A DNA stretch of 34,119 bases from positions 1 to 34,119 of the forward strand of contig CAZDXD010000001.1 of NCBI GenBank assembly GCA_964509415.1, written 5' to 3'. Below, piece after piece: positions 210-19,340 of the stretch. A program made the position numbers and the translations under genes. Under the pieces are notes generated by a model. It had not been told where the DNA came from, ran no database searches, and saw only the letters and a list, made by a program, of their open reading frames with translations. Each line of letters begins with the position of its first letter. The stretch's first letter is position 1. Source of the DNA: an uncultured Treponemataceae bacterium. Lineage in GTDB: Bacteria; Spirochaetota; Spirochaetia; Treponematales; Treponemataceae.

Positions 210-1523
210 ATGGGGTCACATCAAAAAATCAACAGCCTTGCAGAAGAGTTAAACGAAATTTTAGATAGCTGCGCGGCGGGCAGGCTGCTTTCAGGCTTGG
301 GCAGGCGCATTTACTTTCCTAAGGGCATTATCGCGCAAAGCGACGAAGCCAAGCGGCTTGGAAAAAACGCAAACGCCACAATCGGCACGGCGGTTAAAGA
401 CGGCGAGCCTATGATGCTCTCGTCCATTAAAAAATACCTGCCAGCCTTTGCGCCTAGTGAAGCCGTGGGCTACGCTCCAACGGCTGGAAACCCTAAGCTG
501 CGCGAGCTTTGGAAAAAGTTTATCCTTGATAAAAACCCTTCGCTTAAAGGCGTGGATTTTTCGCTCCCCATTCTTGTGCCGGGGCTGACAGCTGGCGTAT
601 CATATCTTTCCGATATGTTCCTTGACGAAACAACCGCGCTTCTTACCGCAGACCCGTACTGGGAAAACTATTCCCTTATAGTCGAAGCAAGGCGGAACTC
701 AAGCCTGCATAAATTCAAAATGTTTGAAAACGGCGCGTTCAGCACGGCGAACTTCAAGAAGGCGCTTAAAAAAGAAGCTGAAAGCGGCGCTGTCAGGCTT
801 CTTTTGAACTTTCCGCAGAACCCGTCAGGCTACACGCCTTATAAAGGCGAAGCGGAGGAAATCTGCGCCGCTATAGCGGAAACAGCCGAAAGCGGCGCTG
901 ACGTTCTTGTATGGTGCGACGATGCCTATTTCGGCTTAAACTACGAAGAGGGAATTTGCGCAGAGTCGCTTTTTGCGAAACTTGCATCCGCGCACGAGAG
1001 AATACTTGCCGTTAAAATTGACGGACCTACGAAGGAAGATTATGCATGGGGATTCCGCACGGGATTCGTTACATTCGCTTCAAAGGGAATGACAGCGGAG
1101 CAATACGACGCGCTGGCAAAAAAGATGATGGGCTTTATCCGCTCTTCGACTTCATGCGCAGCGACAGAATCCCAGTCAATTATCCTTAAAGCCTTTGAAG
1201 ACCCTTCAACCGAAGAAGAAAAAGAAGAGTTTAAGAGCATTCTCCTTGAACGCTATCGCCTCGTCAAAAAAAGCCTTGAGGCTCACAAGGGAAGTCCAGC
1301 GATAGAGCCGCTTCCGTTTAATTCAGGCTACTTTATGTGCCTGCGCTGCATTGGAGCCGGCGCGGAAGAAGTGCGGCAGGAGCTTTTGGCAAAGCACGGC
1401 ATAGGCACGGTGGCAATAGATGAAAGCCACCTGCGGATTGCGTTTTCTTCGCTTGACACTGAAAAAATCGAATACGTTTACGACATGATTTTCAAGACTG
1501 CGGAAGAGCTTGCAGGCAAATAA
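210..1523 (+). CDS. PLP-dependent aminotransferase, class I/II fold (aspartate/aromatic aminotransferase-like)
   Basis: NFPQNPSGYTP motif, DDAYFGL, and a Lys-containing TKEDYAWGFRTGF segment that fits the SxxK...GxRxG PLP site. Length is about 437 aa. I chose ATG 210 (MGSHQK...) over the upstream TTG 174. Confidence 0.8.
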   Translation: MGSHQKINSLAEELNEILDSCAAGRLLSGLGRRIYFPKGIIAQSDEAKRLGKNANATIGTAVKDGEPMMLSSIKKYLPAFAPSEAVGYAPTAGNPKLRELWKKFILDKNPSLKGVDFSLPILVPGLTAGVSYLSDMFLDETTALLTADPYWENYSLIVEARRNSSLHKFKMFENGAFSTANFKKALKKEAESGAVRLLLNFPQNPSGYTPYKGEAEEICAAIAETAESGADVLVWCDDAYFGLNYEEGICAESLFAKLASAHERILAVKIDGPTKEDYAWGFRTGFVTFASKGMTAEQYDALAKKMMGFIRSSTSCAATESQSIILKAFEDPSTEEEKEEFKSILLERYRLVKKSLEAHKGSPAIEPLPFNSGYFMCLRCIGAGAEEVRQELLAKHGIGTVAIDESHLRIAFSSLDTEKIEYVYDMIFKTAEELAGK

Positions 1524-1535
1524 ACCAAGCGCCCC

Positions 1536-2024
1536 TTACAGCCGCAACAAATGCGCCGTCTGCACGTTTTCGGGGATTTTTTCGTACAGCGGCTTTGCCT
1601 TGCTGTTGCTTTTATCAAAGCAGACAGCAGCCTCGAAAAGCTCGATTGTGTACTGTTCAAGTATGTCAATATTGGGACCAAAATTGCTGATAGCCATGTT
1701 GCAAAAAATTCTCTGCGGATCGTTCTCGGACGAGCCGAAAGAACGGCCGCCAATCGAGCTATTTAGCGATGGTATAACGGTAGTACGGACATCGCTTATA
1801 AAGCGCGCCAGCGCATTAATTTGAAGGTAAAGCTCATCAAGAGGGATTCCGCGGTTAAGCGCGTCCAAGGGATACTCCGTTAAATCGGAAATGCGATGGT
1901 CAATGACAGGGGCGGAAAGCACAGGCACAAGCAAGGGGCGGATAAACCTTGTAGCAACATTCTGCGTATAGTGTTCCGCAAGCCGCAGAATCATTCCGGA
2001 AATCTCAGGATCGCGCACAATCAC
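1536..2024 (-). CDS. Hypothetical protein (162 aa), no family recognised
   Basis: Longest ORF in this interval. It has a GTG start bounded by an in-frame TAA 2 codons upstream. TATAAT (complement of 2032..2037) lies 7 nt upstream and TTGTCA lies at -35 spacing. No motif recognised. Confidence 0.45.
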   Translation of the reverse strand: MIVRDPEISGMILRLAEHYTQNVATRFIRPLLVPVLSAPVIDHRISDLTEYPLDALNRGIPLDELYLQINALARFISDVRTTVIPSLNSSIGGRSFGSSENDPQRIFCNMAISNFGPNIDILEQYTIELFEAAVCFDKSNSKAKPLYEKIPENVQTAHLLRL

Positions 2025-2053
2025 TTTTTAGATTATAGTCTCTTGAACCCTAA

Positions 2054-2082
2054 TTGACAACGGCGTTTTTCATTCATAAGAT
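2054..2082 (+). promoter_or_regulatory. Candidate promoter: TTGACA (2054..2059), 17-nt spacer, TAAGAT (2077..2082), 9 nt before ATG 2092
   Basis: Hexamers read directly. It overlaps a divergent minus-strand promoter candidate (TTGTCA/TATAAT, 2032..2060). Confidence 0.35.
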
Positions 2083-2091
2083 TCACGCCAG

Positions 2092-3363
2092 ATGAACAAG
2101 CATAACAGCAAAGCGCCGCCCACCGCGTTTTCCGTAGTGTTTTGCCTGCTGATTCCGCTTTTTTTTGCAGTTTCGTGCGCAAACCATGGAAACCCAATCG
2201 TTGTAATCAAAACCAACAGGAGCGAATTTGCCGCATACGCGGAATTGTTCAACAAGGAGCAGGACACTTGGAAGGCGATGGTTGTGTTTTCAGAAAACCC
2301 TGCTGAAGAGCTTTTGTCACCCGGCATGGATGCGGACATTGTCGCAGGCCCTTGGATTAAAGGAGAAAAAACGCGCTCAAAACTCATTCCGCTGACATAT
2401 CTTTTTAACGAAAGAAAGCTGGACGGAAGCATTTTTTACCGCTCCCTTCTTGAGCTTGGAAACACGCGCGGAACGCAGTTTTCGCTTCCCGTAAGCTTTA
2501 ATCTCCCCGCGCTCATCTTTTCGCAGGAGCATCGCGCCCTTATGCGCGAAGACCCTTTAATCGATTTTGCCGAAATCCAAGAGCTGTCAAAATCCTTTAA
2601 CGAAATGGAAAACGGTGCTTACACGCGCATGGCGTTTTCTCCGCGCTGGGATGCGGAATTTCTCTACACGACGACGCAAATGATGAATGCGGACTTTCAT
2701 GAGTCGGAGAATATCTTTTCTTGGAACGAAAAAAACCTGCGCGACGCTATAATTTTCTTGCGGAACTGGGAAAGCGAGATTAACACATCGGCGGCAGCCG
2801 TGGAAGACTTCAAGTTTAAGTATCTCTATATCCCGCTGGAGCGCGCTGCGACAGGAGGGCGGATTTTGTTCGCTCAAACATACACAAACGAGCTTTTTTC
2901 CGGAACAACTGACAATCTCCGCCAGCTGGATTTCCGATGGCCCGCGCATAACAGAAAGATACCGATGAAAGACGAAATTATCTATCTTGGAATATGCCGC
3001 GGCACAAAAAACAGAGCTGCGGCGGAAGCCTTTGTTTCGTGGTTTTTTAGCGTGGAAACCCAGCAGAGAATCATGGAATACAGCAGGGAAGTCGGCATGC
3101 TGGATAACTCTTTTGGCATTGCAAACGGGTTTTCATCGATAAAATCCGTCAATGAGAGAATTTTTCCGCTTTACTACCCCGATCTTCTCGGAAAAATGCC
3201 GGAAGAAGATCAGCTGAAAATCCCTGAAATTCTCCCCAATGACTGGGAAGAGATAAGGCAGGAAATTCTGCTTCCCTTTCTGTCAGAAATCATCGCCGCA
3301 GAAGATGCCGCTAGCGTGCCGTCTCTTTCAGAGCGCATTGAAAGAAGAGAGAAAACCCACTAA
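2092..3363 (+). CDS. Putative lipoprotein, possibly related to a family-1 extracellular solute-binding protein
   Basis: N-terminal signal peptide ending in the lipobox-like FFAVS-C. The mature part is about 400 aa with an SBP-like size and pattern (DIVAGPWIKGE...LIPL). The family assignment is tentative. Confidence 0.55.
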   Translation: MNKHNSKAPPTAFSVVFCLLIPLFFAVSCANHGNPIVVIKTNRSEFAAYAELFNKEQDTWKAMVVFSENPAEELLSPGMDADIVAGPWIKGEKTRSKLIPLTYLFNERKLDGSIFYRSLLELGNTRGTQFSLPVSFNLPALIFSQEHRALMREDPLIDFAEIQELSKSFNEMENGAYTRMAFSPRWDAEFLYTTTQMMNADFHESENIFSWNEKNLRDAIIFLRNWESEINTSAAAVEDFKFKYLYIPLERAATGGRILFAQTYTNELFSGTTDNLRQLDFRWPAHNRKIPMKDEIIYLGICRGTKNRAAAEAFVSWFFSVETQQRIMEYSREVGMLDNSFGIANGFSSIKSVNERIFPLYYPDLLGKMPEEDQLKIPEILPNDWEEIRQEILLPFLSEIIAAEDAASVPSLSERIERREKTH

Positions 3364-3436
3364 CGCCTCCCGCGCCAAAACATAAGCTAAAACTGGAGCG
3401 CCTCTCTTCCGATAATCTTAATCGGAGGACGAGAAA

Positions 3437-3932: not shown

Positions 3933-4097
3933 ATGACAATGATTGTCGTAACACACGAAATGGGCTTTGCGCGCGAGGCTGCAAGGCGCATCCTCTTTAT
4001 GGCGGGCGGGCAAATCCGTGAGCAAAACACACCGACTAAGTTTTTTGCCGAGCCTAAAAATGAGCGCCTGCGCGACTTTCTCTCTAAGGTGCTTTAG
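3933..4097 (+). pseudogene. 3' relic of a polar amino-acid ABC transporter ATP-binding protein (GlnQ/HisP-like C-terminus only)
   Basis: Hand translation gives MTMIVVTHEMGFAREAARRILFMAGGQIREQNTPTKFFAEPKNERLRDFLSKVL*. This matches the H-loop-to-C-terminus of GlnQ-type ATPases (MTMvvVTHEMgFArev...FsnP..eR...FLskvl). Walker A, the signature motif and Walker B are all absent, and an in-frame TAA sits at 3909..3911. Confidence 0.7.
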
Positions 4098-4110
4098 CCG
4101 TTAATCTTTT

Positions 4111-6144
4111 ATGCCGCTTGACTACAAAAGCGTCCTCAACCCAGAGCAATACAGGGCGGTTACCGCAATAAATGGTCCCGTGCTGATTATCGCAGGCGCG
4201 GGCTCAGGAAAGACGCGCGTAATTACGCACCGTATAGCCTATATGCTTGACCGCGGCATTCCGCAGTCAGAGATTTTAGCGCTTACCTTTACAAACAAGG
4301 CAGCGCAGGAAATGCAAACGCGGGTTAAGGAGCTCACCCAAAAAAAACTTCAGGCACTGACTGTAAGCACATTTCACTCGTTTGGCGTTAAAATCATAAG
4401 GGAGAACTCTGCCCTTCTTTCTAGGCGGGAAAACTTTAGCATTTACGATGAAGGCGATAAGGCGCAGCTTATAAAAGAGAGCGCGCGCGAGGCAGGCTTT
4501 AGTGCGGATGCCCTTGATGTCTATGAAGTCGGTAATCTCTTTTCTGCTATCAAGGGCGGCGTTAAGGACTGGAGCGAGGCGGATGCAAGAATGCGCCCTC
4601 TTTTTGCCGAGTATCAAAAAGGCCTTGAAGTTTACAATGCAGTTGACTTTGACGATCTAATCCTTCTTCCGATAAACCTTTTCCGAGAAAACCCCGCCGT
4701 GCGCGAGAAATACCGCGCTCGCTACAAGTACATTATGGTGGATGAGTTTCAAGACACAAGCGCTCAGCAATATGAGCTTTTGCGCCTTTTGGCGGGCGAA
4801 AATGTTTGCGTTGTAGGGGACGATGACCAGTCTATTTATTCGTGGCGCGGCGCGGACTTTGAAAATATCCGCAAGTTTGAGCGCGACTTCCCCAACCGCA
4901 TTGAAATACGCCTTGAGCAAAATTACCGCTCAACGGGGACAATACTTGCGGCGGCTAACGGCGTAATTTCGCACAACGTAAACCGCAAGCAAAAGGAACT
5001 CTGGTCAGGGAAAGGCGGCGGCAAGCCTGTGGAGCTTTTGACGCCGGAGGACGAAAAGGAAGAGGCTGAGTTTATAGCGGATACAATCCTCTCTCTAAGA
5101 ATGAGAGAGAGGCTAAAGTTTCAGGACTTTGCCGTTTTAATGCGCACAAACAGCTTGAGCCGCGCAATCGAGGAGGAGTTTCTTTCTCGCAACATTCCCT
5201 ACTCAATGTCAGGCGGGAGCAGCTTTTTTCAGCGCAAAGAAATTAAAGACGTGATAAGCTACCTCCGCGTGATTGCAAACCCCGATGACGACATAAACCT
5301 CCTGCGCATTATAAACACGCCGCGCAGGGGAATAGGAAGGAAGGCTGTTGCGGAAATTTCACGCGCAGCTGAAGCTGAAAAAGTGTCAATCTGGCGCGCG
5401 GGGAATCTCGCCTCCGAAAGGCAGGGCGCGCTCTTTTCTGAAAGCCCGACAACGCCTTTTGGGGAATTTGCAGTGTTAATCCGCAAATACCGCGGCGAAA
5501 TGTTAGGCGAGGGGGGTGCCCTTGCAGAGAAGGCGCGGCACTTAATAGAAGAGATTGACTACTGGGGCTTTCTTGTGCAGGAGTATCAAAAAAACGAGAA
5601 GACGGCGCGCTTTAAGTTTTTGAACATTGAAAGCCTTATTGCTTCAATCTCTGACTGGGAGAGGGACCCCGACAACTTTAGCAAATCGCTGTACGATTAC
5701 CTTAACCGCATTACGCTTATGCAGAGGGACAACCCGGAGGACGGCGAGGGGACGGGCAAGGTAAACCTGATGACAATACACGCCGCGAAGGGCCTTCAGT
5801 TTCCCGTTGTCTTTATTGCGGGCGCGGAGGACGGCATTATCCCGCACGCGCGCAGCCTTGAGGAAAGTGAGCTCACCCCCGAAAGCGGCTCAGGCGGCAT
5901 AGAAGAGGAAAGGCGGCTTTTTTACGTTGCAATTACGCGCGCGCAAGATAAGCTCTTTATTTCGAGCTGTGCCAGAAGGCGAAAGGGCGGCAACCGCGCG
6001 GAGTGCGCCCCCTCGCCTTTTATAAGCGAAATCCCCGAAGGCCTTGTGGAATACCGCGAAGCTGAAATAGAGCAACAGCTTAGCGCGGCGGAAGCAGTAG
6101 ATATTTTAGCGCAAATGCGGTCGCAGTTTGGGAAGGGCCGGTAA
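4111..6144 (+). CDS. ATP-dependent DNA helicase, UvrD/Rep/PcrA family (SF1)
   Basis: Walker A AGAGSGKTRVITHRIAYM, motif II VDEFQDTS, GDDDQSIYSWRGA, NYRST, and C-terminal TIHAAKGLQFPVVF plus EERRLFYVAITRA. Confidence 0.92.
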   Translation: MPLDYKSVLNPEQYRAVTAINGPVLIIAGAGSGKTRVITHRIAYMLDRGIPQSEILALTFTNKAAQEMQTRVKELTQKKLQALTVSTFHSFGVKIIRENSALLSRRENFSIYDEGDKAQLIKESAREAGFSADALDVYEVGNLFSAIKGGVKDWSEADARMRPLFAEYQKGLEVYNAVDFDDLILLPINLFRENPAVREKYRARYKYIMVDEFQDTSAQQYELLRLLAGENVCVVGDDDQSIYSWRGADFENIRKFERDFPNRIEIRLEQNYRSTGTILAAANGVISHNVNRKQKELWSGKGGGKPVELLTPEDEKEEAEFIADTILSLRMRERLKFQDFAVLMRTNSLSRAIEEEFLSRNIPYSMSGGSSFFQRKEIKDVISYLRVIANPDDDINLLRIINTPRRGIGRKAVAEISRAAEAEKVSIWRAGNLASERQGALFSESPTTPFGEFAVLIRKYRGEMLGEGGALAEKARHLIEEIDYWGFLVQEYQKNEKTARFKFLNIESLIASISDWERDPDNFSKSLYDYLNRITLMQRDNPEDGEGTGKVNLMTIHAAKGLQFPVVFIAGAEDGIIPHARSLEESELTPESGSGGIEEERRLFYVAITRAQDKLFISSCARRRKGGNRAECAPSPFISEIPEGLVEYREAEIEQQLSAAEAVDILAQMRSQFGKGR

Positions 6145-11860: not shown

Positions 11861-13549
11861 ATGACTAGAATAAAAGAAATTATGCCGGCTTTTTCCCTGT
11901 TTTTTTCCGCAGTTTTATCATCTTTTATGCTTGCGCTTGGAATCCCAAATGAACTGTTTTCAGCTGGCTCGGCTCTTTTTGGCATTTTTTGCCTTGTTCC
12001 GCTGTACACAGCTTTAATTTATGCTAAATCCTTTGCGCTTTCAGGGCTAATCTGCGGCACTCAAATTGCCTGCGTTCATCTTTTTTCTAGCTTTTGGCTT
12101 GCAAATTTTAAGGATTTCGCGATTTTCACGCTGGGTGCCTCCACAATAGCCTACTTTGGATTGGGCGTTTTAATCGGCTGGTGCCTGAAAACTGTACTCT
12201 GCTCGCGAAAAAACTTGCGCCCGTTTGCATTTGCCGCCTGCTGGGTGTGCTGGGAGTGGCTTAAATCCACGGGCTTTCTGGGCTACCCATGGGGCACGCT
12301 GTCGATGACCTCTTTAAGCATGAGGCGCTTTATACAAATCGCTGACACAACCGGCATTTGGGGAATATCGTTCCTCTTTGCGCTCGCGTCAGCGGTTGCA
12401 GCGGAGCTCCTCTTGCCGGAAAACAGATGGCTGCTGCAAGGCCTTCCCCGCGCCCTGAAAGCCCCCGCGCGGCTAAGGCTTCTTGCCAGCTCAAACTGTC
12501 TCCGAGCCGCGCTTTTTGCGGCAGCTCTGTTTGCTTTAAGCGTTTTTTACGGCTTTTACGCGCTTTCTAAAATCCCTGAGCCTGAAGGGAGCTTTGCCGC
12601 CTCGCTGATACAGCAAAACTCGGACCCTTGGGGCGAGGACGGAGACCCGGATGCCACTCTACAAGACTTGCAAAACCTCACACGGGATGCCCTCGCTGAT
12701 TGGGAAAGCTTGAGCAAAAAGCCTGACATTGTCATTTGGAGCGAGTCATCGCTTCCTTACGCATATAATATCAACAGGCGCTATTACAGCATACGCCCTG
12801 CAGAAGACCCGTTTCTTTCATTTTTAAGGGAAACCGGTGTTTATCTTTTTACAGGCTCGCCTTTTATCGAAACGGAAAACGGCAAAAGGCGCTCCTTTAA
12901 TGCGACAATACTTATTCGCCCTGATGACGGGGAAATCGAAGACTGGTACGGCAAAATCCAGCTTGTGCCTTTTGCGGAATATGTTCCGTTTTCTGACAAT
13001 GAATTCCTTGCGGGGCTTTTTGAAAGAATTGTAGGCTTTTCTTCGGGCTGGACGCCGGGAAAGAAGAGAACCGTCTTTACAATCACCGCGAAAGGGGACG
13101 GCGGAACCGCGCTTGAAATTCCCTTTACAGCCCCCATCTGCTTTGAAGACGCTTTCCCAGCCGTAACCGCGCGGCTTCACAAGGCGGGCGGAAAAGTTCT
13201 TATAAACCTTACAAACGATTCCTGGTCAAAAACTGAAAGCGCGGAGTATCAGCATTACGCTGTCGCGAGCTTTAGGGCTATTGAGCTTCGCACAACCATG
13301 ATTAGAAGCACAAACGGAGGCTTTACCGCAATAATTCTGCCTTCAGGGGAAATCCTTGCCTCCCTCCCTCTCTTTGAACGCGCGTTCTTGAATGCGGAAG
13401 TCCCCGTTTATCCGGCAGTCAAAACGTTCTATATCAAGTTTGGAGACTGGTTTGCGGGGCTTTGCGCGATTTTCGCGGCAGCGGCTGTCATTGATGCCCT
13501 GCGGCAGAAAAAGGGCGGCGCGCTTATTCCTAAGGGAGCGGCCTTATGA
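11861..13549 (+). CDS. lnt: Apolipoprotein N-acyltransferase
   Basis: Polytopic N-terminal half followed by a CN-hydrolase domain with the E-K-C triad context (VIWSESS, KIQLVPFAEY, APICFEDAF). Size is 562 aa. Confidence 0.85.
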   Translation: MTRIKEIMPAFSLFFSAVLSSFMLALGIPNELFSAGSALFGIFCLVPLYTALIYAKSFALSGLICGTQIACVHLFSSFWLANFKDFAIFTLGASTIAYFGLGVLIGWCLKTVLCSRKNLRPFAFAACWVCWEWLKSTGFLGYPWGTLSMTSLSMRRFIQIADTTGIWGISFLFALASAVAAELLLPENRWLLQGLPRALKAPARLRLLASSNCLRAALFAAALFALSVFYGFYALSKIPEPEGSFAASLIQQNSDPWGEDGDPDATLQDLQNLTRDALADWESLSKKPDIVIWSESSLPYAYNINRRYYSIRPAEDPFLSFLRETGVYLFTGSPFIETENGKRRSFNATILIRPDDGEIEDWYGKIQLVPFAEYVPFSDNEFLAGLFERIVGFSSGWTPGKKRTVFTITAKGDGGTALEIPFTAPICFEDAFPAVTARLHKAGGKVLINLTNDSWSKTESAEYQHYAVASFRAIELRTTMIRSTNGGFTAIILPSGEILASLPLFERAFLNAEVPVYPAVKTFYIKFGDWFAGLCAIFAAAAVIDALRQKKGGALIPKGAAL

Positions 13550-14139
13550 AAGCGAAAACGCGCAAATCCGTCGCCGTGCTTGCGGGAGCCGCCGTTCTTT
13601 GCCTGTGCTCCCTTTTTCAGATAACGGCGCGGGGAAACTTGCAGCTCCCCGTTACGCCGCACTCTTGCGCAACCGCCGTTCTAGGCATGCTGCTAGGACC
13701 TGCAAGCGGCGCCGGAGCCGCGGGGCTTTTTTGCATTGCAGGCGTTATAGCGGGCTTTTTTGGCCTTAAATTTTTCCCCAGTGACCTTGCGGGCTTTAGC
13801 GCGCTTGGAACGCTTGCAGGCGGCGCGGTTACCGGCTATTTTTTTGCCGCGGTTGTGGCGGGAATTTGCACAAGAAACATTAAGCCCTCCGATGAGCGGG
13901 CAAAAGCCTTTCCCGCAATTGTGCACGGGGCAATAGCGGGCATTCTGTGTTCAGCCATCCCTGTAATTCTCGCATTCAGAAACCTTGCAGGCGCGAGCCT
14001 CCTTCAGGCGCTGCGGTACGCTTTTGTTCCCTATTTGCCTGCGGACATAATCAAAATGATTCTCGCTATTATCATAACAGATGTCCTGCGAAAGCCGGTC
14101 GGCTCATGGATTAACAGCGCGGTTTCCGCAGGACAATAG
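13546..14139 (+). CDS. bioY: BioY-family biotin transporter S-component (divergent)
   Basis: About 6 TM helices. LPVTPHSCATAVLGMLLGP corresponds to IPITLQT..vlLaGlLLGP, GGAVTGYFF to GPTGGYl.gF, and FVPYLPADIIKMILA to F.PGD..K. The ATGA overlaps the lnt stop. Confidence 0.65.
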   Translation: MKAKTRKSVAVLAGAAVLCLCSLFQITARGNLQLPVTPHSCATAVLGMLLGPASGAGAAGLFCIAGVIAGFFGLKFFPSDLAGFSALGTLAGGAVTGYFFAAVVAGICTRNIKPSDERAKAFPAIVHGAIAGILCSAIPVILAFRNLAGASLLQALRYAFVPYLPADIIKMILAIIITDVLRKPVGSWINSAVSAGQ

Positions 14140-14167
14140 ACTTTGGCTACGGTGCAGCCGTCTATTG
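14134..14167 (+). other. Stem-loop overlapping the bioY stop codon (8 bp + 4 bp stem, no U-tract)
   Basis: caatagac (14134..14141) pairs with gtctattg (14160..14167). The inner ggct (14145..14148) pairs with agcc (14156..14159). Confidence 0.4.
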
Positions 14168-14196
14168 CCCGCGTTCCATCTCGCAAAGCATCACGC

Positions 14197-14356
14197 AAAA
14201 ACGGCGATTTTTGTGTCTGAAAAACCGCGATTTTCGTTGTTCAATAACGGCGATTTTTGCAACAGTCATACGTACGTATGCATGCCATCAATCTAGGCTA
14301 GATTGGTGCCTGAATTATCGCCGTAATTGTGATTGAATTGCCGCCGTAATTCAGGT
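14197..14356. repeat. Five-copy A/T-flanked ACGGCGAT-core motif array with a 23-bp period (3 forward, 2 inverted)
   Basis: Forward cores lie at 14201..14208, 14224..14231 (ACCGCGAT variant) and 14247..14254. Inverted cores lie at 14317..14324 (ATCGCCGT) and 14340..14347 (GCCGCCGT variant). All were read directly. Confidence 0.7.
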
Positions 14357-14363
14357 GGTTGAC

Positions 14364-14391
14364 AGCCTGCCTGTCCGCAGAGCTTTTTTTT
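14364..14391 (+). terminator. Candidate intrinsic terminator (7-bp bulged stem, 6-nt loop, T8 tract)
   Basis: agcctgc (14364..14370), loop ctgtcc, gcag-a-gct (14377..14384) running into tttttttt (14384..14391). It lies downstream of bioY and upstream of the nrdR promoter. Confidence 0.5.
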
Positions 14392-14411
14392 ATACTTCAG
14401 CCTATTGCATG

Positions 14412-14469
14412 AAACAACAAATAGTTGTAAATTTGATATTGACACGGAAAAAGACACCATATGTAGTTG
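14412..14469 (+). promoter_or_regulatory. Candidate nrdR-nrdD promoter with two NrdR-box-like sites
   Basis: Box-like 16-mers are aaacaacaaatagttg (14412..14427, about 11/16 to acaCwAtATaTwGtgt as I recall it) and acaccatatgtagttg (14454..14469, about 12/16). TTGACA at 14439..14444 is followed 17 nt later by TGTAGT (14462..14467), which overlaps box 2. Confidence 0.45.
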
Positions 14470-14496
14470 CGCAAGATATGGCTACGGGAGGCGGCT

Positions 14497-14964
14497 ATGC
14501 GCTGTCCATATTGCGGCAGCTTTAACGACAAAGTTCTCGATTCGCGAACGCTTGCGAGCGGCTTGAAAATCCGCAGAAGGCGTGAATGCATGGACTGCGG
14601 CTATCGCTTTACAAGCTATGAGCGGGTTGAAGAAAGGCCGCTTATGGTTGTAAAAAAAGACGGCAGGCGGCAGCCTTTCGACAGGCCTAAGCTGGAGAGG
14701 GGAATTAGCCGCGCCCTTGAAAAAAGGCCTTTTTCCGGCAACACAATAGAAAATATTCTCAACGAGGTTGAGGATATCGCCATCATGGAAGGCAAAAAGG
14801 AAGGCGAAATTGCAAGCTCTCGCCTCGGCGAAATTGTGCTTGACAAGCTTTACGAGACAGACAAGGTTGCTTATATCCGCTTTGCATCGGTATACAGGCA
14901 TTTTGATAACCTTGAGGAATTTATTTTAGAGATACAGAAAGCGGAGGAAAGAAGCAATGGCTGA
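14497..14964 (+). CDS. nrdR: Transcriptional repressor NrdR (Zn-ribbon + ATP-cone)
   Basis: MRCPYCGS...DSR...RRRECxxCGxRFTSYE followed by an ATP-cone (VVKKDGRRQPFDRPKL...YIRFASVY). GGGAGG lies 5 nt before ATG 14497. The track start at 14467 is an upstream extension. Confidence 0.92.
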   Translation: MRCPYCGSFNDKVLDSRTLASGLKIRRRRECMDCGYRFTSYERVEERPLMVVKKDGRRQPFDRPKLERGISRALEKRPFSGNTIENILNEVEDIAIMEGKKEGEIASSRLGEIVLDKLYETDKVAYIRFASVYRHFDNLEEFILEIQKAEERSNG

Positions 14965-17083
14965 AGAAGCGCCCCTGTCTCAGGGCATTTTCCCTGAATG
15001 GAAATCTTTTCTTGGGGCATCTAGCGACCCTGAGGCGGCATCTTTTATTAAAAGCGTTGTAAAGCGCTCAGGGGAGGTTACCCCATACAATAGAGAAAAA
15101 ATCGAAAGCGCCATCAACAAGGCCATTGCAGCTGCCGAAGGGCAAGGCGACGATGAAAAGGCTAAGGCTCTCACTGATAGGGTAGAAGAGGAACTTCGCC
15201 TTCTTATGGCGGGAAGGCACGAGCACTCAATCCCTGCAATAGAAGAAATTCAAGACATTGTCGAAAACGTCCTTATCAGGGCGCAAGAAGTAAAAGCCGC
15301 AAAAGCCTACATTCTCTACCGCGCAAGGCACGAGGCTTTCCGCGATGCGAAGCGCCTCATGCTCGACATTGACGAAACCATGAACGGGTATTTAAGCCAG
15401 TCCGACTGGCGCGTCAAGGAAAACGCTAACGTAAACTTTTCGCTTGGCGGGCTTATCCTGCACAACTCTGGTACAATCACGGCGAACTACTGGCTTAAAA
15501 ACATTTATCCAAAAGAGATTGCAGAGGCGCACAGGACAGCGGCGTTTCACATTCACGACCTTTCCATGTTTTCAGGCTACTGCGCGGGCTGGTCTCTTCG
15601 CCAGCTTATTGCGGAAGGCTTGGGCGGAGTCCCCGACAAAATCACTTCAATGCCCGCAAAGCACCTGTCCACGCTAATTCAGCAAATTGTAAACTTTTTA
15701 GGAATAATGCAAAACGAATGGGCGGGCGCTCAAGCCTTCAGCTCTTTCGACACATATCTTGCGCCCTTTGTGCGGGAAGACAACTTGTCAGAAAAGGAAG
15801 TCAAGCAGTGCCTTCAGAGCTTTATCTACGGCGTGAACACGCCGAGCAGATGGGGCTCGCAGGCGCCGTTTACAAATATCACGCTGGACTGGGTTTGCCC
15901 GAAAGACCTCGCGGATAAGCCCGCAATCATTGGCGGCAAAGAGGCAGGCTACACTTACGGCGACTGCCAAAAGGAGATGGATTTAATCAACCGCCTTTTT
16001 ATAGAGCTTATGATTGAAGGAGATGCCGCGGGGAGAGGCTTTCAATATCCTATTCCCACTTACAACATCACGCGGGACTTTGACTGGGAGGGCGGCAACG
16101 CGCGGCTTCTTTTTGAAATGACCGCGCGGTACGGAACGCCGTATTTCCAGAACTTTATCAATTCGGACCTCAACCCGAATGACGTGCGCTCGATGTGCTG
16201 CCGCCTGCAGCTAGACAAGAGGGAGCTGCGCAAGAGGGGCGGCGGGCTTTTTGGCTCCGACGAGTTTACAGGCTCCATTGGCGTTGTGACGATTAACCTG
16301 CCGCAAATAGCCTATCTTTCCAAAACAGAGGACGAGTTTTTTGGCCGTCTTGACCTCCTCATGGTTCTCGCAAAAGACAGCCTAGAGATAAAGCGCAAGG
16401 TGATAAACAGGCTGCTCGAAGGCGGGCTCTTCCCCTACACGAGGCGCTACCTTTCGCACCTCAACAACCATTTTTCTACAATAGGAATCTGCGGGATGAA
16501 CGAGGCTTGCCTCAACTTTTTAGGCTGCGACATAACGCACAGCGACGGCAAGGCGTTTGCGGAAAGGGTGCTTGTCCACATGAGGGAAAGATTGGCCGAC
16601 TTTCAGGAAGAAACGGGCAGCCTCTTCAACTTGGAGGCAACCCCTGCGGAGAGTACAAGCTACAGGCTTGCCCGCCACGACAAGGAGCGCTTCCCCGGCA
16701 TAATCGCGTCGGGGGAAGATGAGCCTTTTTACACAAACTCTAGCCAGCTTCCTGTGCATTTTACAGACGACGTGTTTGAGGCTTTGGACTTGCAAGACTC
16801 TCTTCAAACAAAGTATACAGGCGGGACGGTCTTTCACGTGTTTTTGGGCGAGGCAATAACGGACTGGCAGGCCTGCCGTAACCTTGTCAAGACAATAGCC
16901 TTTAACTATAGGCTGCCTTATTTTTCCATCTCGCCCACCTTTTCGGTGTGCCCAATTCACGGCTACCTTGCGGGCGAGCACTTTGAGTGCCCCAAGTGCA
17001 AGGAAGAAAAGGAGGCTGCCCTAAAAAAGAGGCTTGCCGAGCTGGAAGAAGAAAAAGCGGCGGCGGCAAAGGCTGTCATATAA
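14957..17083 (+). CDS. nrdD: Anaerobic (class III) ribonucleoside-triphosphate reductase NrdD, lacking the C-terminal glycyl-radical segment
   Basis: N-terminal ATP-cone (VVKRSGEVTPYNREKI), FHIHDLS, the SMCCRLQLD finger loop, NLEATPAES, TGGTVFHVFLGE, and the C-terminal ribbon SVCPIHGYLAGEHFECPKC. The ORF ends at TAA 17081..17083 without an RxxGY motif. GGAGGA lies 8 nt before the ATG. Confidence 0.9.
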   Translation: MAEEAPLSQGIFPEWKSFLGASSDPEAASFIKSVVKRSGEVTPYNREKIESAINKAIAAAEGQGDDEKAKALTDRVEEELRLLMAGRHEHSIPAIEEIQDIVENVLIRAQEVKAAKAYILYRARHEAFRDAKRLMLDIDETMNGYLSQSDWRVKENANVNFSLGGLILHNSGTITANYWLKNIYPKEIAEAHRTAAFHIHDLSMFSGYCAGWSLRQLIAEGLGGVPDKITSMPAKHLSTLIQQIVNFLGIMQNEWAGAQAFSSFDTYLAPFVREDNLSEKEVKQCLQSFIYGVNTPSRWGSQAPFTNITLDWVCPKDLADKPAIIGGKEAGYTYGDCQKEMDLINRLFIELMIEGDAAGRGFQYPIPTYNITRDFDWEGGNARLLFEMTARYGTPYFQNFINSDLNPNDVRSMCCRLQLDKRELRKRGGGLFGSDEFTGSIGVVTINLPQIAYLSKTEDEFFGRLDLLMVLAKDSLEIKRKVINRLLEGGLFPYTRRYLSHLNNHFSTIGICGMNEACLNFLGCDITHSDGKAFAERVLVHMRERLADFQEETGSLFNLEATPAESTSYRLARHDKERFPGIIASGEDEPFYTNSSQLPVHFTDDVFEALDLQDSLQTKYTGGTVFHVFLGEAITDWQACRNLVKTIAFNYRLPYFSISPTFSVCPIHGYLAGEHFECPKCKEEKEAALKKRLAELEEEKAAAAKAVI

Positions 17084-17104
17084 ACAAACTTTAAGGAGGA
17101 GATT

Positions 17105-17659
17105 ATGGCAAGAACTGTAGCAGAGATTGAAGCTGACATTGCAAAAACAAAAGAAGAATTGGCGAATGTTCGCGGCACGGAGGCGGAAGTTTATGCCCGC
17201 ATTGTAGGCTACTACCGCTCTGTGCGCAACTGGAACAAGGGCAAGCGGGAAGAATACAAAGAGAGAAAGCTTTTTGTTCCTTCAGAGAAAGAAACTGAAG
17301 CCCATCTGGACGGAATATCAGCAAGCCCTGCAAATCAAAGTCCTTGCGGGAACGTTACGGCACCGGGCGCTTTTTCCGCGCGGGAAAAGCAAACTGTGCG
17401 CTATGAGCTTTTTACCCGCAGGACCTGCCCGAACTGCCCACCTGTTAAAGAGTACTGCGAAGCGCACTTTGAAGGCGGGAAAATCTTTGACGTTGACGGC
17501 GACGAAGGGCTAAAGCAGGCTCAAGAGCGCGGCGTTCTTTCAACGCCAACTGTTATCTTCTACGCGGATGACGGCGCGGAGATTGCAAGAGCGCATTCTG
17601 TAAGCGAACTGAAGACGGCTGAGGAGGCGCTTCTTTCTATAGCGAAAGCCTCCGCGTAA
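17105..17659 (+). CDS. NrdD-type glycyl-radical domain fused to a thioredoxin/glutaredoxin-fold CxxC domain
   Basis: Residues 28-55 read EVYARIVGYYRSVRNWNKGKREEYKERK, the class III RNR glycyl-radical signature (Gly codon 17207..17209). The C-terminal part, about 85 aa, reads VRYELFTRRTCPNCPPV...STPTVIFY...SVSELK, a Trx-fold pattern with CPNC at 17426..17437. AAGGAGG (17093..17099) lies 5 nt before the ATG. Confidence 0.75.
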   Translation: MARTVAEIEADIAKTKEELANVRGTEAEVYARIVGYYRSVRNWNKGKREEYKERKLFVPSEKETEAHLDGISASPANQSPCGNVTAPGAFSAREKQTVRYELFTRRTCPNCPPVKEYCEAHFEGGKIFDVDGDEGLKQAQERGVLSTPTVIFYADDGAEIARAHSVSELKTAEEALLSIAKASA

Positions 17660-17664
17660 AGGCA

Positions 17665-18420
17665 ATGATTCGCGCAGGTTTGCAGAAAACTTCGCTTGTC
17701 AATTACCCCGGCAAAGTTGCCGCTGCTGTTTTTTTGCCGGGATGCAACCTGCGCTGTCCGTATTGCTACAACAGTGAGCTTGCTCTTGCCGATCCCTTAA
17801 CGGGGCCTGACATGCCAGCGCCTGAAAGGGATAGCGGGGAGGCTTACTTTACAGAAGAGGAGATTTTCCGGCATCTTGAAAAACGGGCGGCTATGCTTGG
17901 AGGAGTTGCAATATCCGGCGGCGAGCCGCTCCTCTCCCCCTTTCTTGAGCCGCTTGTCTTAAAGGCAAAATCTTTGGGTCTTGCCGTTAAAATCGACACA
18001 AACGGCACTCTCCACGAAAGGCTAATGCGCCTAATTGAAGATGAGCGCCTTCGCCCTGACATGATAGCCCTTGATATAAAAACCGCGCCAAGGAAATATC
18101 ATCTGCTTTTTCCAGCGGATAAAGGCAAGGCCTTGGGGGAAGCTATTGTCAAGTCAATCGCCTTGCTTTCAAAAGCATCAGCCAAAAAGCTCGTCTCTGT
18201 AGAATACAGGACAGTGCTCGTGCCCGGTCTTGTCGACAAAGCCGATGCGCTTGAAATTGCTGCCTTGCTCCCTCGTGATGCTGACTGGCAGTTTGCGGCT
18301 TTTTCTCCCGGAAGATGCCTTAACCCCGCATGGAATGAAAAAGCGCCGTACACGCAAGAAGAAATGGCGGAAATAATTGAGGCTGCAAAAGAGAAGGTGC
18401 CGGGGGCGGAGCTTAGGTAA
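17665..18420 (+). CDS. nrdG: Anaerobic ribonucleotide reductase activating protein (radical SAM)
   Basis: YPGKVAAAVFLPGCNLRCPYCYN (CxxxCxxC cluster), a GGEPLL SAM-binding motif, and position directly after nrdD. Confidence 0.9.
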   Translation: MIRAGLQKTSLVNYPGKVAAAVFLPGCNLRCPYCYNSELALADPLTGPDMPAPERDSGEAYFTEEEIFRHLEKRAAMLGGVAISGGEPLLSPFLEPLVLKAKSLGLAVKIDTNGTLHERLMRLIEDERLRPDMIALDIKTAPRKYHLLFPADKGKALGEAIVKSIALLSKASAKKLVSVEYRTVLVPGLVDKADALEIAALLPRDADWQFAAFSPGRCLNPAWNEKAPYTQEEMAEIIEAAKEKVPGAELR

Positions 18421-18471
18421 TTTAGCTCTCAGTTTGAGACTTCTGAATGGTTAGCCGCAATTAAAATATTT

Positions 18472-18480
18472 TGCTATAAT
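18472..18480 (+). promoter_or_regulatory. Extended -10 element TGcTATAAT upstream of the membrane-protein gene
   Basis: tgctataat read directly, 20 nt before ATG 18501. A weak AGGAAA SD lies in between. Confidence 0.35.
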
Positions 18481-18500
18481 TAAAAACTAGGAAACCTCCC

Positions 18501-19340
18501 ATGACAGAAATAATCGCGCGCCGCCAGTTTGACCCCATGTATATCTGGCTTGATATAGCCTTTCTTGTTCTCTTTGTTGCGCTTCTCATCTGGAAAAAGA
18601 AATACATGACCGTAATCGTCGGTCTGGTTTTCGGCGCTGTTTATATGGCAGTCGATTACGGCATATTTCACCTTCTTACCCATTCGCGCACGATATTCAA
18701 CGGATACAGCATGTTCGGCGTGCTTCTTTGGATGTCGGTAAGCTACGGATTTACAAACTTTGCCTGGATATGGCTTTGGATATCAAAAGACAAAAACCTC
18801 TTTGAGTGGTCTCTTTTAATACTTTGCTGGTGGCTTTGCTGCCCGCTGCTCGCAGAAACCTTCTCTTACGGCGCGCCGCCCGTTATCATTCAAAGGACAA
18901 CGGGCGCATATCACGGATTTATGGCGTTAATCCTCTTTGCGGGCTACCTAATGCTAATCATCTGGAATATGTCGAGGAAAGATAGCCGCGCCCGCGTCAA
19001 CATCCCGCGCCTTCTTGCCTGCGGCGTGCTTGTGCAGTTCGGCTGGGAAGCCGCGCTCCTTTTAGGCGGCATTCGCAGCTCCGGCTTTGAAACATTTTGG
19101 GACAAGTTGCTCACGCTTGCGGTAAACTCGCTCCTTGAAACCAATTTAGGACTTCCTTATATTTATTTTATCTTTATCGCGTTTTCATCGCGATTCACGG
19201 AGCAGCTTAAAAAAAGAAGAAAGCCTGTTAAGTTTGTCGCGCGGCTTATCGAAAACAATGCCCGCCGTGTGCGCGATGATATGGCAGACGATCCGTATCT
19301 CGAAGGCAACTGCGATAAAGCCGAGAGTACGGAAAATTAA
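18501..19340 (+). CDS. Polytopic integral membrane protein, family unknown
   Basis: About 7-8 hydrophobic Trp/Leu-rich helices (e.g. LDIAFLVLFVALLIW, FGVLLWMSVSYGFTNFAWIWLWI, LLILCWWLCCPLL) and a charged C-terminal tail. No family motif recognised. Confidence 0.6.
   Translation: MTEIIARRQFDPMYIWLDIAFLVLFVALLIWKKKYMTVIVGLVFGAVYMAVDYGIFHLLTHSRTIFNGYSMFGVLLWMSVSYGFTNFAWIWLWISKDKNLFEWSLLILCWWLCCPLLAETFSYGAPPVIIQRTTGAYHGFMALILFAGYLMLIIWNMSRKDSRARVNIPRLLACGVLVQFGWEAALLLGGIRSSGFETFWDKLLTLAVNSLLETNLGLPYIYFIFIAFSSRFTEQLKKRRKPVKFVARLIENNARRVRDDMADDPYLEGNCDKAESTEN

Follow-up and report, generated by a model that had tools for sequence, protein, structure and literature searches.

Class III ribonucleotide reductases (RNRs) of the NrdD2 type are defined, in the account of Wei et al. 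relayed by PMC4493059, by three active-site cysteines together with a glutamate. In the double-cysteine NrdD of Neisseria bacilliformis, an active-site disulfide is formed and is reduced by thioredoxin (Trx), and 83% of the double-cysteine NrdDs also keep the finger-loop methionine needed for formate chemistry (PMC9669993). The same work, a 2022 analysis of RNR extensions, treats class III C-termini only as glycyl-radical domains (GRDs) (PMC9669993). Autonomous GRDs that act in trans are known for pyruvate formate-lyase (PFL), as described for GrcA and T4 Y06I (PMC12338860). As for redoxins joined to an RNR, the fused glutaredoxin (Grx) of the Facklamia ignava Grx::ATP-cone::NrdB protein reduces its own holoenzyme, and a 2018 RefSeq survey of redoxin-RNR fusions recorded a single Grx:NrdD, in Lachnospiraceae bacterium TWA4, and none in a spirochete (PMC6187632). 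Here we describe a class III RNR locus in a 34,119-nt stretch of DNA (hereafter, the window) from an uncultured Treponemataceae bacterium (GenBank assembly GCA_964509415.1, contig CAZDXD010000001.1). The nrdD product of this locus has no GRD; this domain is encoded instead by a separately initiated open reading frame (ORF), where it is fused to a CxxC Trx-fold domain.

The nrdD product (14957..17083, + strand, as are all window features below) is a core subunit of 708 amino acids (aa) with an ATP-cone (aa 33-126, 15053..15334; PF03477, E 1.1e-21), an alpha/beta barrel, a zinc ribbon and a helical tail. The Pfam NRDD profile PF13597 matched this ORF over profile positions 1-534 of 562 (E 2.9e-176), and profile positions 532-562 fell on residues 26-57 of the following 184-aa ORF (17105..17659), which encodes the small subunit. 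NCBIfam model NF006126 gave the same picture, with positions 3-657 of 684 on NrdD (1093 bits, cut-off 548) and 647-681 of 684 on the small ORF. Since the coverage of both models divides between the two ORFs, the break in the profile falls cleanly after the zinc ribbon and ahead of the glycyl-radical loop. The other hallmarks of a class III NrdD are in place. The barrel recognized by both models carries the finger-loop motif M413-C414-C415-R416 (MCCR, 16193..16204), which is of the double-cysteine type among the motif classes described in PMC9669993 and aligns to the SCCRL segment of Thermotoga maritima NrdD (PDB 4COI), the closest solved structure to the window NrdD. The C-terminal zinc ribbon, C665-P-I-H668 and C678-P-K-C681 (16949..16999), aligns to the T. 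maritima ribbon, and the radical-SAM activase NrdG is encoded nearby (17665..18420). Only the RVxGY glycyl loop is lacking on this polypeptide, and the two-ORF enzyme as a whole possesses it.

The GRD of the small subunit (aa 24-57, 17174..17275, GTEAEVYARIVGYYRSVRNWNKGKREEYKERKLF) was nearly invariant in 140 homologues. It matched NrdD models only, and no match of the small protein to PF01228, the PFL-type Gly_radical model, was obtained at E<=0.01. In the AlphaFold2 (AF2) model of the small subunit, residues 30-33 and 36-39 form a beta-hairpin with the radical glycine, G35 (codon GGC, 17207..17209), at its tip. The junction between the two genes (17081..17104) consists of the TAA stop of nrdD (17081..17083) and a 21-nt spacer with the Shine-Dalgarno sequence AAGGAGG (17093..17099), which is followed after 5 nt by the ATG of the small ORF at 17105. 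In the window the two ORFs are in the same frame, with seven sense codons between them. An initial annotation of this DNA, made from the sequence by a model, had given the positions of the stop, the Shine-Dalgarno sequence, the start, the shared frame with its seven codons, Gly35 and the CPNC motif, and all of them agreed with the sequence. Its assertion that NrdD lacks the glycyl motif, which would sit in the next ORF instead, was borne out by the clean division of the profiles. It had also allowed for an overlooked second motif inside nrdD; there is none, as RI[VI]GY[YF]R was found exactly once in every locus examined, and always in the short ORF.

The same arrangement was found widely among relatives, in hundreds of genomes of spirochetes. 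When 90%-identity clusters were searched at E<=1e-3, the small protein had 1180 relatives, the best 120 of which were all 165-209 aa in length, and an exhaustive profile search of 1.84 billion representatives yielded 159 clusters (50% identity) at E<=1e-30, numbers well above anything that chance would give. A scan of one genome per species gave 583 matching stretches, and the best 80 of them belonged to Treponema, Treponemataceae or Spirochaetales, except that a few carried other taxon labels and were taken to be mis-binned. The split was seen in the cultured species T. berlinense, T. porcinum, T. socranskii, T. zuelzerae and Brucepastera parasyntrophica, and wherever a related locus reached far enough upstream to show it, it was present (50 loci in one comparison, 45 complete gene pairs in another). 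In the related loci NrdD ended 24-32 aa past the ribbon, which was kept as C[PA].H..C..C in most of them, with C-S-V-H, C-H-I-H and C-R-S-H as minor variants. The gap between nrdD and the small ORF ranged from 17 to 201 nt, the relative frame was 0, 1 or 2 in 21, 15 and 14 of the 50 loci, respectively, and nrdD ended in TAA (30), TGA (15) or TAG (5). A GGAG-type Shine-Dalgarno sequence preceded the ATG of the small ORF in 49 of the 50. Because gaps, frames and stop codons vary in this way among relatives, sequencing error, readthrough and frameshifting are excluded as the source of the split. The best 120 clusters of NrdD homologues, which were 699-721 aa long and 78-86% identical and included the proteins of T. 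denticola, T. pedis and T. zuelzerae, ended in the same helical tail. Judged from these comparisons, the split into NrdD and a GRD-Trx protein is a trait of the Treponemataceae; the architecture first noticed in the window stands, and its scope is not confined to this genome.

The nrdD gene and the small gene are independent units. In T. denticola (L084) and T. pedis (L085/L086), nrdD encodes the truncated form with the helical tail and is followed by Band_7 genes or proS, with neither the small gene nor nrdG as a neighbour. In T. phagedenis (L088 4489..5750), a gene for a 170-aa GRD-Trx protein (CPKC) overlaps the 5' end of nrdG, and the flanking DNA, about 4.5-5 kb in each direction, contains no nrdD. 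Two divergent GRD-Trx genes, with RIVGYHR and RIVGYMR variants of the motif, stand alone (L103 4001..4573; L102 4001..4540). One of the two lies in a mobile-element-like setting, among genes for a Prim-Pol, an SNF2 helicase and a single-stranded-DNA-binding protein, and the other in an ordinary chromosomal one. In two further cluster representatives, P0237 with 320 aa and the truncated P0161 with 255 aa, the small subunit runs straight into a CxxxCxxC radical-SAM activase; these apparent GRD-Trx-NrdG fusions may be real or may reflect missed stop codons. The T. phagedenis linkage, the stand-alone members and the GRD-Trx-NrdG fusions together indicate that the small gene is tied to the activase at least as tightly as to the core.

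The C-terminal domain of the small subunit (aa 98-184, 17396..17656) is a thioredoxin fold, as the initial annotation had expected, and the evidence for it is strong at the family level. The AF2 model, built on a 140-sequence alignment, had a mean predicted local distance difference test (pLDDT) score of 86 and reached 92-98 over most of this domain. Foldseek with the domain model returned a probability of 1.00 to many thioredoxins, with TM-scores, normalised to the target, of at most 0.68. Among the 140 family members, Pfam assigned Glutaredoxin to 93, Thioredoxin_2 to 70 and Thioredoxin_3 to 57, and both cysteines of the redox motif C108-P-N-C111 (17426..17437) and P148 (17546..17548), the putative cis-proline, were invariant. 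The domain thus has the fold, the N-terminal CxxC on the first helix and the cis-Pro loop of the thioredoxin superfamily. Its match as a single sequence was weak (PDB 1FO5, E 1.2e-3); the search listing labels 1FO5 only as 'thioredoxin', and we take it to be MJ0307. The domain does not belong to the TIGR00411 equivalog, against which it scored 22.3 bits, below the cut-off of 92.75.

The GRD and the Trx domain are joined by a variable, low-complexity linker (aa 58-97, 17276..17395). In 133 homologues it ranged from 23 to 72 aa, with a median of 41, and showed no sequence conservation, and the pLDDT of residues 71-90 was 51-56. A conserved pair of shuttle cysteines in the linker was considered and rejected, as CxC, CC or CxxC occurred in 26 of the 133 homologues, 86 had no cysteine there, and the window protein has one. 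The pairs in those 26 often read HLP...GCxC, reminiscent of the tail shuttle cysteines of class I and II RNRs. The single linker cysteine of the window, Cys81 (17345..17347), lies in SPCGN at the place where close relatives have CRCGN.

On either side of the junction lies an amphipathic helix, one at the C-terminus of NrdD (aa 682-708, 17000..17080, KEEKEAALKKRLAELEEEKAAAAKAVI) and the other at the N-terminus of the small subunit (aa 2-22, 17108..17170). In 45 loci the NrdD tail kept invariant E3, L8, L15 and E18, counted from the last ribbon cysteine, plus L/I12, with heptad-like spacing, and the small-subunit N-terminus kept hydrophobic residues at -23, -20, -16, -13, -9 and -6 from the EVY motif, a 3-4-3-4-3 spacing. 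AF2 modelled helices at 679-705 of NrdD (10-residue block means 71-87) and at 5-20 of the small subunit (pLDDT 90-95). From these patterns we infer that the two helices are the halves of a coiled-coil tether between the subunits. The Lys/Glu/Ala-rich insertion that had been noticed at the junction is real and conserved, with a length of about 50 aa, and is specific to split forms. A split intein was also considered for the junction and rejected, as the flanks are amphipathic helices of 25-30 aa, which were judged to be too short for intein halves; no intein motifs were found there by eye or among the Pfam matches, although the comparison included no dedicated intein model.

The unsplit relatives have no such helices. 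Phage-encoded NrdDs (L090; L091 2270..4114; L094/L095 2216..4111), which have neither an ATP-cone nor a Trx domain, are 67-68% identical to the window NrdD over aa 138-679; their junction reads CPKCGKETEVYARIVGYY, and they end 24 aa past the glycyl motif with no helical insertion. To judge from this similarity, genes may have been exchanged between hosts of the treponeme type and their phages. A contig-truncated protein from a JGI metagenome, P0234 (L101 5..946, 3300035043), is an unsplit NrdD-GRD-Trx protein in which the ribbon runs straight into the GRD (CPHCGADAEVYSRIVGYY), again with no helical insertion; a long linker of repetitive sequence then leads to a CPNC Trx domain, and nrdG lies downstream. 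As P0234 demonstrates, the Trx domain can be fused in an unsplit protein, whereas the helix pair accompanies only the split. The architecture proposed at the outset holds for the split form, and an unsplit NrdD-GRD-Trx form has to be set beside it.

The chemical subtype was assigned from the active-site residues. In an alignment to T. maritima NrdD, the window GYC (beta-A) coincided with Y124-C125, MCCR with the finger loop that holds the cysteine pair, and FNLE with FNIE. The third active-site cysteine and the active-site glutamate are thus present, and by these residues the window enzyme is of the NrdD2 type, with a three-Cys-plus-Glu active site. The CPNC Trx domain is the probable turnover reductant of the active-site disulfide. 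As the window NrdD keeps the finger-loop methionine of MCCR that belongs to formate-type chemistry, the assignment of a protein reductant is probable rather than certain.

Taken together, we consider it likely that the locus encodes a class III RNR of the NrdD2 type with two obligatory subunits, of which the smaller provides the radical in trans, is anchored by the helix pair and carries its own reductant. NrdG would generate the radical at Gly35 of the small subunit, and the N-terminal helix of this protein would pair with the C-terminal helix of NrdD, docking the small subunit to the core. The glycine hairpin would then enter the barrel in trans, beside the C414/C415 finger loop, in the manner of the C-terminus of one-piece NrdDs. 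Each turnover would oxidise the active-site cysteine pair, as expected of NrdD2-type chemistry; the CPNC domain, on its flexible tether of about 40 aa, would re-reduce the disulfide, and a cellular reductase would recharge the CPNC domain. Oxygen would cleave the chain at the radical glycine, and as this residue is located in the 20-kDa subunit, the loss would be confined to that replaceable part. Trans docking, helix pairing and the role as reductant are what we infer here, and a radical subunit that tethers a reductant fits both the three-Cys-plus-Glu site and the known analogues. Several points weigh against the two-subunit enzyme in this form. The small gene of T. denticola was not among the small-protein matches listed. 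When the two subunits were concatenated, AF2 gave only a poor model (pLDDT 58, predicted template modelling score 0.44, GRD region <50), as the alignment was too shallow, with all NrdD homologues at least 78% identical and lacking diversity. Formate could be the reductant, the Trx domain might serve activation instead, and the advantage of replaceability is purely conjectural.

A rival reading is an enzyme that also has two subunits, but whose Trx domain would maintain a reduced state for NrdG, either of the cysteines in the zinc ribbon or GRD or of the activation machinery, with formate as the active-site reductant. Retention of the MCCR methionine used by formate-type chemistry would agree with this, as would a small gene that goes with nrdG, sometimes fused to it, rather than with nrdD. 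We regard it as unlikely, however, because the extra cysteine and the glutamate of Trx-type NrdD2 enzymes are present in the active site, and the long flexible tether suits a domain that reaches a distant active site. Much less likely still is that the small protein is a GrcA-like spare for a complete NrdD encoded elsewhere, with the local GRD-less nrdD as a degenerate copy. The GRD-less NrdD is intact and well conserved over the 120 best clusters, always ends in the same helix and sits in the nrdR operon, and no NrdD homologue among those listed is long enough to hold a GRD; what makes spare-part use conceivable is the occurrence of stand-alone NrdD-type GRD minigenes in phage contigs (see below). 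That the two ORFs yield one polypeptide, through a sequencing or assembly error, a pseudogene, readthrough, frameshifting or trans-splicing, is hardly credible. The shared frame and the single TAA in the window would be compatible with it, but among relatives the frame is effectively random, the gaps reach 201 nt, all three stop codons are used, and in some species the two genes are unlinked. The same evidence disposes of an assembly error at the TAA, which the initial annotation had wished to see checked.

The phage minigenes encode NrdD-type GRD proteins of 41-126 aa (L092/L093 3998..4201; L089 303..452; L096 about 3980..4120; L097 about 3977..4111; L100 about 3965..4111; L099 2406..2783). 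They adjoin structural and packaging genes, namely those for terminase, prohead protease and tail tube, and no NrdD core or NrdG was found in their fetched flanks. The products of L092/L093 and L089 have an N-terminal helix like that of the Treponema small subunit; the L092/L093 product is 56-57% identical to the small subunit over aa 4-57, and the L099 minigene encodes a zinc ribbon together with the GRD. Upstream of the minigene in L092 (about 1100..3400), overlapping ORFs on both strands have highly repetitive translations rich in Ala/Asp/Trp and in Gly/Cys. The minigenes may supply class III RNR with radical subunits, either as spares or as a means of hijacking. A literature search on autonomous glycyl-radical RNR proteins of phage gave only a PFL/GrcA paper and a Salmonella gene-expression paper. 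A further step, which we put forward tentatively and with less conviction than the two-subunit enzyme itself, is that the treponeme enzyme would be an obligately heteromeric glycyl-radical enzyme whose radical site is a diffusible, exchangeable 20-kDa protein cofactor with its own disulfide reductant, activated free in solution by NrdG and plugged into a radical-less core. Phages would make use of this principle too, through minigenes that could recharge or hijack host cores.

The genes around the split complete an operon-like set in the window, in the order nrdR-nrdD-small gene-nrdG. The transcriptional repressor gene nrdR (14497..14964; Pfam Zn_ribbon_NrdR and ATP-cone) begins at TTG 14467 in the ORF list, and the conserved MRCPYCG start corresponds to ATG 14497; its 3' end overlaps the start of nrdD by 8 nt. 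NrdG scored 130.8 bits against TIGR02495 (NrdG2), whose cut-off is 131.15, and also matched Radical_SAM and Fer4_12. The order of the four genes is kept in T. zuelzerae, T. berlinense and Brucepastera. In B. parasyntrophica (L001 2355..4964), nrdR runs in frame into nrdD with no stop (...EVTQVGEKT-MSINTDNKK...), giving an 869-aa ORF, which could be a real fusion or could have nrdD translated from an internal start. No promoter-like or terminator-like site was found in the gap between nrdD and the small gene, an Rfam scan of 13500..18700 gave no match, and an NrdR box (consensus ACACWATATATWGTGT) was found with up to 3 mismatches neither upstream of nrdR (14140..14496) nor elsewhere in the window. 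With the same confidence as for the two-subunit enzyme as a whole, we regard nrdR-nrdD-small gene-nrdG as probably a genuine conserved operon for a class III RNR of two polypeptides.

All components of this system are of known kinds, and their arrangement is new to the literature that we searched. In full-text searches aimed at this architecture, an NrdD that lacks the GRD and is accompanied by a separate GRD-Trx subunit was nowhere described, as had been anticipated, and a search on T. denticola NrdD gave no description of this arrangement. Pfam and NCBIfam have no model dedicated to the small protein, which appears in databases as 'hypothetical', 'thioredoxin family protein' or 'anaerobic ribonucleoside-triphosphate reductase'; the present assignment corrects the annotation of thousands of small proteins labelled hypothetical, 'thioredoxin family' or 'NrdD'. 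To our knowledge, no earlier glycyl-radical enzyme has its native radical domain as a separate subunit, and this one, if the reading as an exchangeable cofactor is true, would be the first. Activation of glycyl-radical enzymes requires the radical loop to move out of the barrel, and we know of no established route by which a protein reductant reaches the buried active-site disulfide of Trx-type class III RNRs. A radical loop that is separate, helix-tethered and fused to a reductant would make both loop exit and reductant access directly testable. The small protein offers a minimal substrate for structures of the activase with a GRD, for subunit exchange after oxygen damage, and for the kinetics of a tethered versus a free reductant, and the phage NrdDs without the ATP-cone are useful as close unsplit comparators. 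The arrangement also bears on how treponemes, among them the periodontal pathogen T. denticola, tolerate oxygen and supply themselves with deoxynucleoside triphosphates.

Several described systems share features with this locus. GrcA/YfiD and T4 Y06I are, like the small protein, free-standing GRD proteins of small size, activated by an activase and working inside the barrel of a large enzyme, which here would be NrdD. GrcA, however, rescues a PFL that has its own GRD, whereas NrdD is without one in all loci examined; GrcA has another partner enzyme and no redoxin domain, and the small protein of the window has no Pfam Gly_radical match. Because the large subunit here never has its own GRD, GrcA is only a functional analogue. 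The parallel with GrcA drawn in the initial annotation is sound to that extent and fails in the sense of a spare part. The Grx-NrdB of Facklamia ignava likewise has a redoxin joined to the subunit that carries the radical, where it serves to reduce the catalytic subunit; it differs in belonging to class I, in its tyrosyl or metal radical subunit, and in the N-terminal position of the Grx.

The class II NrdJa/NrdJb of Pseudomonas aeruginosa and Thermus phage phiYS40 is also an RNR chain in two consecutive ORFs, but of another class and with another break point. Splits of phage nrdD are due to introns, inteins or homing endonucleases (PMC3653736), whereas the 21-nt gap of the window holds no mobile element. 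The small archaeal Trx/Grx-like proteins (MJ0307 family, 1FO5, TIGR00411) gave the best sequence match to the Trx domain and share with it a Trx fold of about 85 aa, CPxC and the cis-Pro; they differ in that the window domain scores only 22 bits against the cut-off of 92.75 and is attached to a GRD. There is also a likeness to the one-piece NrdD2 RNRs of T. maritima (4COI/4U3E) and N. bacilliformis, which have in common with the window enzyme an ATP-cone or barrel, the double-Cys loop, the beta-A cysteine, the glutamate, the zinc ribbon, the RIVGYY glycyl motif and an adjacent radical-SAM activase. A protein reductant of the thioredoxin type has been demonstrated for the N. bacilliformis NrdD, and the window enzyme would probably use one as well. 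In contrast to those one-piece enzymes, the window enzyme has its GRD on a separate chain, the break is marked by an insertion of about 50 aa of paired helices, and the reductant-like domain, which is a free thioredoxin there, is covalently attached to the GRD.

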